From UHGV virus genome UHGV-1359728: a stretch of DNA of 14,383 bases. One strand, written 5' to 3'. The notes below the pieces were generated by a model. It did no database searches. It was not told the origin of the DNA and saw nothing but the letters and a program-made list of their open reading frames with translations. This document shows positions 3,312 to 7,396 of this stretch, piece by piece. This stretch comes from a virus. The position numbers were made by a program, and so were the translations under genes. Numbering within the stretch: the stretch's first letter is position 1; the number at the start of each line of letters is the position of its first letter.

Positions 3312-3494
3312 TTACATTGGTTTTGTAATGTTGCTAGTCATCTTACGAATAAAAAAATGCGTACGTAGCTTTGCTTCCCACATGTAAATCTCTTCAAGAC
3401 GAGATAAATCTACGAATACCGGACCTTTGTAATCTGGTCTTGATGCCCTTATGTATGAGCTAATAGTTTGTGCATCTTGCTCGTCAAGATTCAT
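3312..3494 (-). CDS. Hypothetical small protein (60 aa)
   Basis: The internal ATG at 3494 of ORF-track frame 3312..3698 gives MNLDEQDAQTISSYIRASRPDYKGPVFVDLSRLEEIYMWEAKLRTHFFIRKMTSNITKPM. It lies immediately downstream of the terminator hairpin and is preceded by GGGGGAGAGGGA. Confidence 0.45.
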   Translation of the reverse strand: MNLDEQDAQTISSYIRASRPDYKGPVFVDLSRLEEIYMWEAKLRTHFFIRKMTSNITKPM

Positions 3495-3509
3495 GACTTC
3501 CCTCTCCCC

Positions 3510-3542
3510 CAAATAAAAAGGCCTGCGATTACCAGCAGGCCT
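3510..3542 (-). terminator. Rho-independent terminator (tR2-like) downstream of the helicase gene
   Basis: On the minus strand an 8-bp perfect stem (AGGCCTGC/GCAGGCCT, plus-strand 3519-3526 and 3535-3542) with an 8-nt loop is followed by TTTTTATTT. Confidence 0.6.
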
Positions 3543-3570
3543 GTTATTAGCTCGGTGATGTAGATGGTCA

Positions 3571-5007
3571 TCAGAATCCTCCTTTCTTCTTGGATTGCGG
3601 TTCCTCGCGTTCACGGCGGCGCATTTCAGCGGACTGTTGGTCTGTGTCATAAATAGCGCCATTTGCCTGAATGCAATACACCGTGCCGGTATTGCCATGA
3701 CGATTGAGACGAAGGATTAGTTCAGTTTCACCAGGTGGAACACTGTCATCAAAAGCGCCTTCACGATGGATCCCGACCCAATAATCGCAATCCTGTTCAA
3801 TCTGCCCTGTATCTCGTGAGTCACTTGGTAATGGGCGTTTATTGGTTCGGCTTTCCAGTGCGCGGTTAAGCTGTGTCAGAAGCACAACAACGCAATCAAG
3901 CTCTTTGGCAAGGTTCTTCAGTCCTTTGGTGATCATGCCGTAAGCAAGGTCGTTGCGATCGGCCTTCTCAGCGGTCATTAGTGTCAGGTAATCGACCAGA
4001 ATCATGCCAACATATCCTTTTTCTCGCTTGATTCGACGGCTTTCGCTGACGATTTGAGCCAGAGATAATCCCGGCGTGTCGTCGATGTAAAGCATGTCGA
4101 TTTCACTCAAGCGATTGGCTGTTTCGATCGCCCTGTTGAAGTCACCATCGTAATCACCCTGATAGCCGTCATCAGCGTCATTTGTCGCCGGAAGGTAAAA
4201 AATATTCGGGTTAACACCAGACTTCTGCCCTACCAGTTTTTCCAGTATCTGGTCACCGGGCATTTCAAGGCTGAACATCAGAGCGGGCTTTTTCTCATGC
4301 ACTGCGCAGTTGATTGCCATCTGGCTGTATAGCGTCGTTTTCCCCATCTTAGGGCGAGCGCCAATGACAAACAGAGAGCCTTTCACCAGACCTTTCGGTG
4401 ACAGCATCCTGTCCAGCGATGGGATCCCTGTGCTCATTCCTCGTTGTTCGCCTGACGGGTCAAATCGCTTCTCAAGGTCGCTAACCCAGTCTTCCATGAC
4501 CTCACCAAATGAGCGAAGGCCGCGACGCGATCCGGTTTTTGCATGGTCTGTCAGTTGCGTGAAAATCGCCTGAATAGCTTCGTACTTCTGCGTTGCAGTC
4601 ATTCCGTTGCGGGAATAGAGCAATTCCGTCGCTTCAGTCATGCGGTTGATGGCGTAGCGTTCCATTGCGGTTTCACGAACCTGCATTGCATAGGCAACGA
4701 TGTTTGCTGCGCTTGGCGTGTTCTTTGCGATCTCAGCGATATAAGCAAAACCGCCAACAGACGCCGTTAACGATTTACGCTCCAGTTCATCGAAAAGCGT
4801 CAGGCCATCTACTGGCTTTTGCTCCCGGTGCATTCTGGTTATTTCTTCGAAAAGGATTTTGTGTGGCCGGCTGTAAAATGAGTCAGGCTTCAGCATCGCC
4901 AGAACTTTCTGGACGCGCTCACTGCTGTCATCATCCAGAAGCAATCCACCAATCACCGCCTGCTCTGCCTCGATGCTATGGGGCGGCGCATAAAAATTAT
5001 CGGTCAT
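3571..5007 (-). CDS. DnaB-family replicative DNA helicase (phage-encoded, P22 gene 12-like)
   Basis: About 478 aa from the ATG at 5007 (the track's GTG at 5022 is an alternative). Walker A GARPKMGKTT and a DnaB-like N-terminal domain. GAGG lies about 10 nt upstream of the ATG. Confidence 0.9.
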   Translation of the reverse strand: MTDNFYAPPHSIEAEQAVIGGLLLDDDSSERVQKVLAMLKPDSFYSRPHKILFEEITRMHREQKPVDGLTLFDELERKSLTASVGGFAYIAEIAKNTPSAANIVAYAMQVRETAMERYAINRMTEATELLYSRNGMTATQKYEAIQAIFTQLTDHAKTGSRRGLRSFGEVMEDWVSDLEKRFDPSGEQRGMSTGIPSLDRMLSPKGLVKGSLFVIGARPKMGKTTLYSQMAINCAVHEKKPALMFSLEMPGDQILEKLVGQKSGVNPNIFYLPATNDADDGYQGDYDGDFNRAIETANRLSEIDMLYIDDTPGLSLAQIVSESRRIKREKGYVGMILVDYLTLMTAEKADRNDLAYGMITKGLKNLAKELDCVVVLLTQLNRALESRTNKRPLPSDSRDTGQIEQDCDYWVGIHREGAFDDSVPPGETELILRLNRHGNTGTVYCIQANGAIYDTDQQSAEMRRREREEPQSKKKGGF

Positions 5008-5896
5008 CGTGTTCACCCTCACGAACTTTCAGGTAGGTATTATCGTTAAGCAGGAAATCAAATCCCTTTTTGTGCCAGACGGTTCCGCGTTGATGGTTTG
5101 GGCGCTCTTCGAACATCCATCGGCAATTTTCGCCAACGTAGCTCAAATAATTTCTCCAGTCCTGCATCGTGAACCCATGCCCGTCAAGCTGGCGGGTTAT
5201 CACTCCGGCTTTGCGCCAGAACGTTCGGATCTGGTTTTTACGCTTGTCATTCAGTGCGCGGATTCTTGGAGCTTCAGGAAGGATTTCGTGGTAAGCATCG
5301 ACAACATCCTGACAGCTGACGGAAGGTTTTTTCTTGTCAGACTTTTTGTCTGCTGTGGCACTCTCTAATACGTCAGTATTAGAGATAATATTATTATATT
5401 CTTTATCTGTGGTAATTTGCTGGTAATCTGCTGGTACAGCATTGCTTACAGGCATTGGTATTGCTGGCTTTGAGGTGGTAATTTGCTGGTAATCTGCTGG
5501 TACAAAATTTGACTGATAATCGTCATATTTCTCTACCGAGAAAACTGAGAATTTACCGTGTGAAACCCAGTCAATCATGCCGAGTTTTTTGAACTTTCTA
5601 AGCAGGTACTGAACGCGATCTGGTTTGAGTCCTGTTTCAAACGCCAGAGAGTTTCTACCGCCAAGTAGCTTCCCTCTGCCTACCAGAATTTCTCCTGCGT
5701 CAGTCATTACATACTCAGGCGTATGCTTTGCTTTGAGGATTAAGTGAACCCACAGATGCGCTGCTTCTGCATCCTTGTAAAACGGCACATCCATAATTTT
5801 ACGGTGCAGCAAGGCATACCCCTTACCGCTGCTTTGATGCGGTTGTTGTAGCCTTCTGGCCTCTCTGGCTTCGGCTAGATTAGATATGTTACTCAT
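4997..5896 (-). CDS. Replication initiator, λ O / P22 gp18-like; contains the origin iterons
   Basis: 299-aa ORF with AAGGAG 8 nt upstream of the ATG at 5896. A 10-aa motif [10 protein letters not shown] occurs twice in the protein, encoded by DNA direct repeats, as expected for ori-inside-O. Confidence 0.85.
5375..5510. repeat. Candidate origin of replication: iteron array plus adjacent AT-rich tract inside the O-like gene
   Basis: A 29-bp direct repeat TGGTAATTTGCTGGTAATCTGCTGGTACA occurs at 5410-5438 and 5476-5504. Within it, TGCTGGTA units lie 10 bp apart (5419/5429 and 5485/5495), with a further TGCTGGC at 5462. An AT-rich tract (AGAGATAATATTATTATATTCTTTATC, 5381-5407) lies on the gene-downstream side. 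Confidence 0.6.
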
Positions 5897-6035
5897 GACC
5901 TTTCTCCTTCTGCATCAGCTTCACTTTTTCCAACTCAGCCCGGAATCGACCAGGCTGCTTGAAGCTGGACAGGAAGCGATCACGTAGTATGTGTTTGTGA
6001 ATTTTGTCCTGGTAAGGACTGAGTTGTTTTGTCAT
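5889..6035 (-). CDS. Candidate small ORF (48 aa) between cII and O
   Basis: ATG at 6035 preceded by AGGAG with 5-nt spacing. Protein [48 protein letters not shown]. Its last codons overlap the O start. It is not in the ORF track (under 60 aa) and may be spurious. Confidence 0.3.
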
Positions 6036-6067
6036 AATTACTCCTGTGGATTGATCCAGTAATTCCC

Positions 6068-6364
6068 TCAGAATTGCATATCAATTTGCTTAAAATCCTC
6101 GGTGGCGGCCGGGGATTTTTTCTTTGTGATTTCATCAAGCGCATACTTAAAAGCCCTGCTAATCGGACTGATGTCTGATGCCATTCCGAAAGCACACAAG
6201 ACCGAAGCAATAAATCTCCAGTCCGTTCTGCTTATCTTCGATTCATGACAGCCAATCATCTTTGCCAGACCGCGCTGGGTAAGCGTTGACAGGTTGATGA
6301 GTAAATCAGTTTCAGCGCGATCAATTTCTCGCTGTGTTGGCTTGCTGTAGCTTGCTTGTGCCAT
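6068..6364 (-). CDS. cII: CII-like transcriptional activator (lysogeny establishment)
   Basis: 98-aa ORF with an HTH region ([14 protein letters not shown]) and a C-terminus ([18 protein letters not shown]) resembling recalled λ CII (KKRPAATERSEQIQMEF). Positioned between cro and O. Confidence 0.8.
6094..6125 (+). terminator. Strong plus-strand intrinsic terminator inside the 3' end of the cII-like gene (oop-like antisense terminator)
   Basis: 9-bp stem AATCCTCGG/CCGGGGATT (6094-6102 and 6109-6117, one G-U pair), loop TGGCGG, followed by TTTTTTCTTT. It is antisense to the cII-like coding sequence. Confidence 0.55.
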
Positions 6365-6479: not shown

Positions 6480-6665
6480 TTATGCCGCTTGGCGGTAAGC
6501 ACTTTCTTGATACTTCAGGGCGCCAGCTGTAACGATTTCCAATCGATAGGCGTCTTTCTCTGGGATAACTTCTTTCCACTGAGAGACTGCTGCATCGCTA
6601 ATGCCTAGTGCTTTAGCAACAGCACGCTGGGTTCCGAAGTGGTCAATAACATCTTTTTTGTACAT
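6480..6665 (-). CDS. cro: Cro repressor (P22-type)
   Basis: 61-aa ORF MYKKDVIDHFGTQRAVAKALGISDAAVSQWKEVIPEKDAYRLEIVTAGALKYQ... with an HTH, divergent from the repressor gene. Confidence 0.9.
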   Translation of the reverse strand: MYKKDVIDHFGTQRAVAKALGISDAAVSQWKEVIPEKDAYRLEIVTAGALKYQESAYRQAA

Positions 6666-6745: not shown

Positions 6746-7396
6746 ATGAATACACAACTGATGGGTGAGCGTATTCGCGCTCGCAGAAAAGAACTCAAGA
6801 TTAGGCAGGCTGCCCTTGGCAAGATGGTTGGCGTGTCTAATGTTGCTATTTCCCAATGGGAGCGATCTGAAACTGAGCCCAATGGCGAAAACCTATTGGC
6901 CTTAGCCAAGGCTTTGCAGTGCTCCCCTGATTACCTGTTGAAAGGAGAGGATAGTCTTTCAAACATTGCCTATCACAGCAGGCATGATCCAAGAGGTTCG
7001 TATCCTCTAATTAGTTGGGTAAGCGCAGGATGTTGGATGGAAGCTGTAGAGCCATATCATAGGCGTGCAATAGATAACTGGTACGACACAACGGTAGATT
7101 GTTCTGAAGACTCTTTTTGGCTCGACGTTAAAGGCGATTCAATGACTGCCCCGGCAGGACTGAGTATTCCTGAGGGGATGATTATTCTCGTCGACCCAGA
7201 AGTCGAACCACGTAATGGAAAGTTGGTAGTCGCCAAACTTGAAGGAGAAAACGAGGCGACATTCAAAAAGTTAGTTATTGATGCCGGTAGAAAATTCCTG
7301 AAACCACTCAATCCACAATACCCAATGATTGAAATCAATGGGAACTGTAAAATCATTGGCGTTGTCGTTGATGCCAAGCTAGCAAACCTTCCTTAA
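6746..7396 (+). CDS. c2: Prophage repressor, P22 C2-type (HTH plus S24 LexA-like autopeptidase domain)
   Basis: 216-aa ORF MNTQLMGERIRARRKELKIRQAALGKMVGVSNVAISQWERSE... with an N-terminal HTH, an Ala-Gly cleavage site (SAGCW) and the GDSM/K catalytic motifs. Very close to the P22 C2 sequence as I recall it. Confidence 0.93.
   Translation: MNTQLMGERIRARRKELKIRQAALGKMVGVSNVAISQWERSETEPNGENLLALAKALQCSPDYLLKGEDSLSNIAYHSRHDPRGSYPLISWVSAGCWMEAVEPYHRRAIDNWYDTTVDCSEDSFWLDVKGDSMTAPAGLSIPEGMIILVDPEVEPRNGKLVVAKLEGENEATFKKLVIDAGRKFLKPLNPQYPMIEINGNCKIIGVVVDAKLANLP

Follow-up and report, generated by a model that had tools for sequence, protein, structure and literature searches.

Does the strand opposite the cII-like gene of this phage encode a short antisense RNA of the oop type known from lambda? 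The question arises from an initial annotation of UHGV virus genome UHGV-1359728, in which the whole stretch of 14,383 nucleotides analysed here is referred to as the window. That annotation placed a strong intrinsic terminator on the plus strand inside the 3' end of a minus-strand cII-like gene, suggested a possible -10 element upstream of it, and proposed that a short RNA runs from one to the other. Whether such a unit is present depends on what the target gene is, on how the promoter and terminator compare with those of lambda, and on whether the same arrangement is kept where the surrounding genes differ.

The cII region of the window

The 601 bases around the putative oop site are 99.8% identical to Enterobacteria phage mEp235; with many Stx phages, VT2-Sakai among them, the identity is 97.8%. 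Judged by this 99.8% identity, the window appears to be essentially phage mEp235. Its immunity and replication region is lambdoid, with an orientation inverted relative to the lambda map, and contains the following genes:

6746–7396, plus strand: repressor resembling P22 C2
6480–6665, minus strand: P22-type cro (Pfam P22_Cro, 5.7e-28)
6068–6364, minus strand: cII, the antisense target (Pfam Phage_CII, E = 2.7e-33; CII in the GenBank record of mEp235)
5889–6035, minus strand: orf48 (DUF2740), 48 codons, downstream of cII on the pR transcript (Pfam DUF2740, 8.9e-29)
4997–5896, minus strand: O-like initiator
3571–5022, minus strand: DnaB-type helicase

The minus-strand reading frame that had been called cII-like is a bona fide cII by its Pfam match. 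It is a distant relative of its lambda counterpart: identity between the protein and lambda CII is just 36%, and the first 242 nt of the gene are 59% identical to lambda. The next gene, orf48, is annotated likewise in P22 (as ORF48), HK620 and VT2-Sakai. In lambda, by contrast, gene O occupies the place held by orf48 in the window. The early-right transcript from pR corresponds to the minus strand; an oop-like RNA would therefore be encoded on the plus strand.

Several other features of the region deserve mention. Within the 5' end of cII, the plus strand carries the lambda CII-binding motif TTGC-N6-TTGC at 6342–6355. This motif is directed towards cro and the repressor gene and reads as a pRE-like establishment promoter site, as it is annotated in mEp235. 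The mEp235 GenBank record labels the P22-type cro (6480–6665, minus strand) a 'prophage antirepressor', which looks like a naming slip. Farther away, a GC-rich hairpin at 3519–3542 (AGGCCTGC...GCAGGCCT) has a T-run on each side and so resembles a terminator whichever way it is read. The helicase ORF reaches into it with its 3' end, it lies within an overlapping ORF (3312–3698), and it ranks second and third among the hairpin plus T-run sites of the window.

The predicted RNA, its promoter and its terminator

On the plus strand, window positions 6028–6122 align without gaps to the pO-oop strand of lambda. The promoter and leader block, TTTGTCATAAT(T/G)ACTCCT, matches lambda at 17 of 18 positions, and 58 of the 77 nucleotides of the RNA body are identical to lambda oop in the same ungapped alignment. 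The 5' end of lambda oop has been assigned to base 38,675, with the -10 located 8–13 nt upstream (PMC5869508). Checked in the lambda sequence, base 38,675 is the G of GTTGATAG and maps to G6046 of the window. Lambda 38683–38688 reads CATAAT on the oop strand and corresponds to window 6033–6038, so that the hexamer suggested by the initial annotation as a possible -10 is present and identical to that of lambda. The parts of the element are as follows:

6010–6015, plus strand: candidate -35 of pO, TGGTAA, matching TTGACA at three of six positions, followed by a 17-bp spacer; inside orf48
6030–6031 and 6033–6038, plus strand: extended -10 of pO, consisting of TG, one nucleotide and CATAAT, within an 11-mer (TTTGTCATAAT) that is identical in lambda
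6028–6060, plus strand: junction block, holding the pO -10, the SD of orf48 (AGGAG, complement of 6041–6045) and its start, and the first ~15 nt of oop
6046–6122, plus strand: predicted oop RNA, 77 nt, with its 5' end at G6046 by homology to lambda 38675
6046–6089, plus strand: stem-loop I, in which 6046–6055 pairs with 6080–6089 around an inner hairpin (6059–6065 with 6071–6077)
6092–6125, plus strand: intrinsic terminator tO, with a 12-bp stem (6092–6103/6108–6119), loop GGCG and tail UUUUUUCUUU

If the start is taken from the 5' end mapped by sRNA-seq in P22 instead, it falls on G6049 and the predicted length becomes 74 nt. The predicted 3' end lies in the U-tract at 6120–6125, at about 6122. 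The length of roughly 80–100 nt first proposed for the RNA is thereby sharpened to about 77 nt, or 74 nt from G6049. The predicted RNA overlaps cII by 55 nt (6068–6122, stop codon included) and covers the 22-nt spacer between cII and orf48; owing to the cis-antisense arrangement, it is fully complementary to its target. Lambda OOP RNA (77 nt, 38675 to 38599) has an equal 55-nt cII overlap and an equal 22-nt spacer. It also starts at the same position relative to the -10, ends at a terminator of like kind in a like place, and folds into two hairpins. One difference is that the CAT of the -10 is the complement of the ATG of O in lambda and of the ATG of orf48 in the window (6033–6035). In position, homology, -10 element, terminator and overlap, the window element is, as far as its sequence tells, a member of the lambda OOP family, which supports the oop-like antisense reading proposed at the outset. 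We conclude that positions 6010–6125 of the plus strand are very probably the pO-oop-tO unit of a lambdoid phage, acting antisense on cII as in lambda.

The -35 of pO had been described as weak, and we find the same. The TGGTAA at 6010–6015, which encodes Tyr-Gln codons of orf48 on the minus strand, matches the consensus at only half of its positions. The lambda -35, TTGAGT, is not found upstream of pO in the window because the upstream module is different, with orf48 in place of gene O. A generic sigma-70 scan of the window did not list pO, owing to the three-of-six score of its -35, and the placement of the promoter needed homology. A TG extended -10 motif makes up for poor -35 elements, and the TG at -15/-14 (6030–6031), present as in lambda, indicates an extended -10 promoter. 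In lambda, -10 mutations abolish oop function, and full function of pO requires more than the 45 nt upstream of the start, 94 nt being sufficient (PMC5869508); the lambda region from -45 to -94 that contributes to this function is replaced by unrelated sequence in the window. A -35 and upstream region unlike those of lambda do not define the family, however, as P22 and many phages with the orf48 module make or encode oop.

Two observations concern the DNA around the -35. A small inverted repeat, GTCCTGGTAAGGAC, at 6006–6019 of the plus strand overlaps the -35 position of pO and contains a CCTGG (Dcm) site. The sequence CCTGG(T/A)A recurs at equal spacing in several upstream modules, which may reflect conserved Tyr/Phe-Gln codons. 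We also considered regulation of pO by LexA and dropped it: no CTG-N10-CAG box was seen, and the literature consulted gave no support.

The strong plus-strand terminator claimed for the 3' end of cII is present. It reads AAAATCCTCGGT ggcg GCCGGGGATTTT, then TTCTTTGT, and ends in a U-rich tail at 6116–6125 (U6CU3). The hairpin, whose 12-bp stem spans 6092–6119, has a predicted stability of -16.4 kcal/mol (z = -3.4); no other hairpin plus T-run in the 14.4-kb window, whichever the strand, is as stable. When the whole window was shuffled with dinucleotide composition preserved (28.8 kb, both strands), 3 of 25 shuffles gave one equally stable site anywhere; the chance of such a site in a given ~60-nt zone is thus approximately 2–3 in 10,000.

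Variation within the stem indicates that it is the structure that is maintained. In the 77-nt class, 29 distinct variants were compared; the tO helix is paired in 97% of cells, and three of its pairs show compensatory changes (UA/CG, 16:13; CG/GC, 15:14; and GC to CG or AU). Between lambda and the window, two pairs are swapped, a C-G and a G-C in lambda being a U-A and a C-G in the window. These swaps alter CII residues from Arg...Arg to Ser...Asp; the RNA structure of the antisense terminator is thus preserved even though the C-terminal tail of CII changes with it.

The 5' half of the RNA gives a less uniform picture. The predicted oop RNA folds into two hairpins with a total of -30.4 kcal/mol (z = -4.2), of which stem-loop I accounts for -13.6 kcal/mol (z = -3.3) when folded by itself. 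The register of stem I differs between lambda (GAUAGAUCCAG/CUGGAUUUGUU) and the window (GUGGAUUGAU/AUCAAUUUGC), the paired alignment columns summing to 50 in lambda and 46 in the window. In the alignment of variants, no compensatory pairs occur in stem I in either register. A single conserved stem I was therefore rejected as a description of this region.

Conservation of the junction block and of the antisense terminator

The block at 6026–6060 is the only stretch over which P22-like, Klebsiella and Yersinia phages match the window, with 87–100% identity, and the flanking genes are unrelated. Just 5' of TTTGTCATAAT, at about 6026/6027, there is a mosaic boundary at which homology to the window stops. 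In 80 loci whose cII genes are nearly identical, this boundary is the joining point for no fewer than four unrelated upstream modules, including the lambda-type O with its TTGAGT -35.

Searching IMG/VR with the conserved block as a DNA pattern, and adding the earlier loci, gave 212 loci that hold the block. They comprise 46 distinct upstream sequences, or 36 when grouped by the first 22 nt. Across these 36 variants, the hexamer 17 bp before CATAAT begins with T (35 of 36), followed by G or T and then by G (31 of 36), and 28 of the variants retain the TG ahead of the -10, counts that overstate independence since many of the TGGTAx variants are DUF2740 homologues. What preserves the TG is an NCA second codon in the downstream gene, irrespective of the amino acid that it specifies. 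Even so, the pattern of -35 and TG across upstream variants seems to fit what a working promoter would leave.

On the other side of the block, at least 28 different stem-loop sequences occupy the place of the terminator in the 212 loci, and the stem ends 56–77 nt after the predicted start. A strict terminator detector missed 28 of 98 distinct RNA variants, mostly of the Klebsiella type, in which the hairpin is bulged and the U-tract interrupted. In this Klebsiella-type cII subfamily (4 plus about 20 loci), the bulged antisense hairpin is followed by the interrupted U-tract CGGCUUUCGCCUUUCUGUU, and the hairpins have compensatory changes of their own (UUAGUG/CACUG versus UUGGUG/CACCG).

An independent set of cII loci was assembled by protein similarity, using a three-protein alignment, with one genome per species and no selection on the DNA block; contigs identical to lambda were removed. 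In this sample, drawn from different Enterobacterales species, an antisense hairpin followed by a T-run occurs in 46 of 47 cII loci and ends 31–56 nt inside the 3' end of cII. The stabilities of these hairpins range from -14 to -25 kcal/mol, with one exception at -8.6, and the remainder of the 320 nt scanned contains sporadic weak hairpin matches only. Furthermore, a [C/T]ATAAT hexamer lies 65–96 nt upstream of the 3' end of the stem in 41 of 45 distinct sampled sequences. Nearly all cII genes of Enterobacterales prophages thus combine an antisense terminator in their 3' end with a -10 set at a constant distance. Homology, geometry, promoter core and the terminator with its structural conservation are shown by the present analysis.

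We considered whether the overlap with oop is conserved in excess of the rest of cII, and rejected this. In the HK97/mEp235-type cII family, 33% of sites in the 55-nt overlap are polymorphic versus 13% in the rest of cII, a 2.5-fold difference in the opposite direction, which arises because lambda-type and 933W-type patches have recombined in. It is therefore geometry and structure, and not conserved sequence, that argue for function. Such recombinant patches are seen in HK629 and P27, which carry a lambda-type stem I and terminator, and in phi315, which carries a 933W-type terminator.

A separate observation concerns contigs in which cII is 99–100% identical to lambda. These are short, of low coverage, and assigned to Ruminococcus, Shewanella, Kitasatospora, Bradyrhizobium, Enterococcus, Vibrio and others. 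They almost certainly represent lambda DNA contamination or spike-in rather than prophages.

Proposed mode of action, alternatives and known relatives

How would the element act? We propose that RNA polymerase starts at a constitutive promoter with a weak -35 and an extended -10, overlapping the start codon of orf48. It would proceed for about 77 nt on the strand opposite that of the early-right message from pR and stop at the intrinsic terminator within the 3' end of cII. The RNA would pair perfectly with the last 55 nt of cII and the 22-nt cII-orf48 spacer, and the duplex with the mRNA would, by analogy with lambda, be cut by RNase III, giving less cII expression and favouring lytic growth. 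Convergent transcription from pO would probably also damp pR transcription entering the replication genes. Both the synthesis of the RNA and its RNase III-mediated action on cII are inferred from lambda, P22 and BTP1. In lambda, oop causes RNase III-dependent cleavage of the cII-O mRNA (PMC5869508, PMC12197685). The cut lies 12 nt downstream of cII; CII is lowered and lytic growth favoured (PMC5869508, PMC12197685, PMC2327240). Only in lambda is RNase III dependence known (Krinke and Wulff 1987, 1990, cited in PMC5869508, PMC2327240). In lambda, pO also interferes with pR and affects the initiation of replication (PMC3985674), and CII activity was not restored in oop and rnc mutants after SOS induction (PMC2327240). 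By analogy, the physiological weight of oop in the window phage is probably modest.

The interference just described raises the question whether the RNA matters at all. The main role of the locus could be that of the promoter, with convergent transcription from pO throttling the passage of pR transcription into orf48, O, the helicase gene and the origin and thereby tuning the initiation of replication, and the quickly terminated RNA largely a by-product. In lambda, a -10 mutation in pO leads to more read-through from pR, to fewer plasmid copies and to impaired replication of phage DNA, and altered stability of oop RNA has little effect on copy number (PMC3985674). Across phage families, too, the best-conserved part is the promoter and 5' block (6028–6060), not the RNA body. 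Against this, tO is held at a fixed distance by compensatory changes despite the amino-acid changes in CII, which argues that a defined short RNA matters, and OOP supplied from a plasmid suppresses CII functions in lambda (PMC5869508). Moreover, the origin lies farther from pO in the window than in lambda because orf48 intervenes. We consider it unlikely, though still a serious candidate, that interference is the main role; the promoter and antisense roles are in any case compatible, not exclusive.

Two further readings dispense with a functional antisense RNA altogether. One places the hairpin on the sense (minus) strand, within the cII mRNA, as a 3' stabiliser or processing site, with the T-run representing Lys codons (AAA AAA). 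The T-run does correspond to conserved K-K residues of CII, and the minus-strand complement of tO also folds (-11.1 kcal/mol, z = -3.1). However, three tO pairs are G-U in most of the 29 variants (U-G in 28, U-G in 20 and G-U in 18). On the minus strand these become C-A mismatches, leaving the plus-strand hairpin 5 kcal/mol more stable (-16.4 versus -11.1 kcal/mol), a difference which indicates that the structure belongs to the plus-strand RNA. A sense-strand element also sits badly with the -10 that 41 of 45 unrelated loci have upstream at a constant distance and with the sequencing of P22 RNAs that have exactly such ends; we regard it as extremely unlikely. The other reading takes the match as chance or as a relic, in which the terminator and -10 are inherited and pO is silent owing to its weak -35 and foreign upstream module. 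The three-of-six -35, the absence of pO from the list of scanned promoters and the requirement in lambda for sequence beyond -45 for full pO activity (PMC5869508) would all fit a silent promoter. Yet P22, with nearly the same orf48 upstream module, makes oop RNA, and TG extended -10 motifs compensate for poor -35 elements. In addition, unrelated upstream modules retain both T-K-G where the -35 would lie and TG at -15/-14, and in a relic a 12-bp stem would not be preserved by compensatory changes. A silent relic is thus very unlikely. The reading that we favour remains an antisense RNA transcribed from pO and directed at cII.

If the RNA is made, its 5' end might reach beyond its own phage. The first ~22 nt of oop together with the promoter (6028–6067) are almost invariant among lambda, HK97/mEp235, P22, Klebsiella and Yersinia phages. 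The cII and replication genes of these phages are otherwise unrelated, and the invariant stretch covers the RNase III cut site of the lambda cII-O message. The oop RNA of a prophage could therefore pair in trans with the spacer of a superinfecting phage. It is improbable, in our estimate, that the oop of a resident prophage does pair with the spacer between cII and the downstream gene of a heteroimmune phage and so biases its lysis-lysogeny or replication decision. If true, this would be a cross-phage RNA interaction on the same block that serves as the recombination joint for module exchange.

What the analysis adds is chiefly annotation. The records of mEp235 and of most related Stx phages list cII, orf48 and O and not the antisense RNA, and oop is missing from the mEp235 and VT2-Sakai records in particular; this gap is now filled. 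A search of the window against Rfam gave no match at gathering thresholds. With the lambda oop and P22 loci as queries, no relevant match was obtained at E <= 1. As even lambda's own oop is unmatched, Rfam 15 holds no oop model, which is why automatic RNA annotation misses the element and why the negative result for the window is uninformative about it. A covariance model could be seeded from the variants collected here. The result leaves the understanding of regulation in such phages unchanged. It has some relevance to Stx phages, in which the lysis-lysogeny balance affects toxin release.

Among the known relatives, P22 provides a comparison with an RNA that has been sequenced. P22 is 97% identical over window positions 6026–6060, and its orf48 module, its -10 block and the first ~15 nt of its RNA are nearly those of the window. 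Its promoter reads TGGTCA in place of TGGTAA and TGG in place of TGT before CATAAT. By sRNA-seq of P22-infected Salmonella, P22 oop is 63 nt long and reads GAUUGAUCC...GGCUUUUCUUU (GAUUGAUCCAGUCUUUC...GGCUUUUCUUU) (PMC13397905). The published RNA is the sequence that we extracted from the P22 locus, with its 5' end corresponding to window G6049 and its 3' end in the U-run that follows the hairpin. OOP(BTP1) has been annotated in this position from a Salmonella prophage transcriptome (PMC7067206). Both P22 oop (P22C-oop, antisense to c1) and OOP(BTP1) end in a hairpin plus U-run terminator, as in the window. The RNA body and terminator sequence of P22 oop are nevertheless unrelated to those of the window, since c1 is a different cII allele. 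P22 oop is also shorter (63–67 nt) and consists of a single long terminator hairpin with a small 5' hairpin only.

Nearer relatives differ little. Stx phages and HK022/HK97-type phages (VT2-Sakai, Stx1-converting phage, HK106, mEp234) are 99–100% identical to the window over 6026–6130, with some Stx phages at 100%, whereas 933W-type phages have a variant terminator, UCCCCGG...CCGGGGA. According to reviews (PMC5488031, PMC12197685), Stx phages have sequences resembling lambda OOP in their cII-O regions, and in the sister genome HK629 the corresponding place carries the annotation 'similar to coliphage lambda oop RNA'. The oop of the window is an unannotated member of this long-known family, and is ordinary for phages of this kind.
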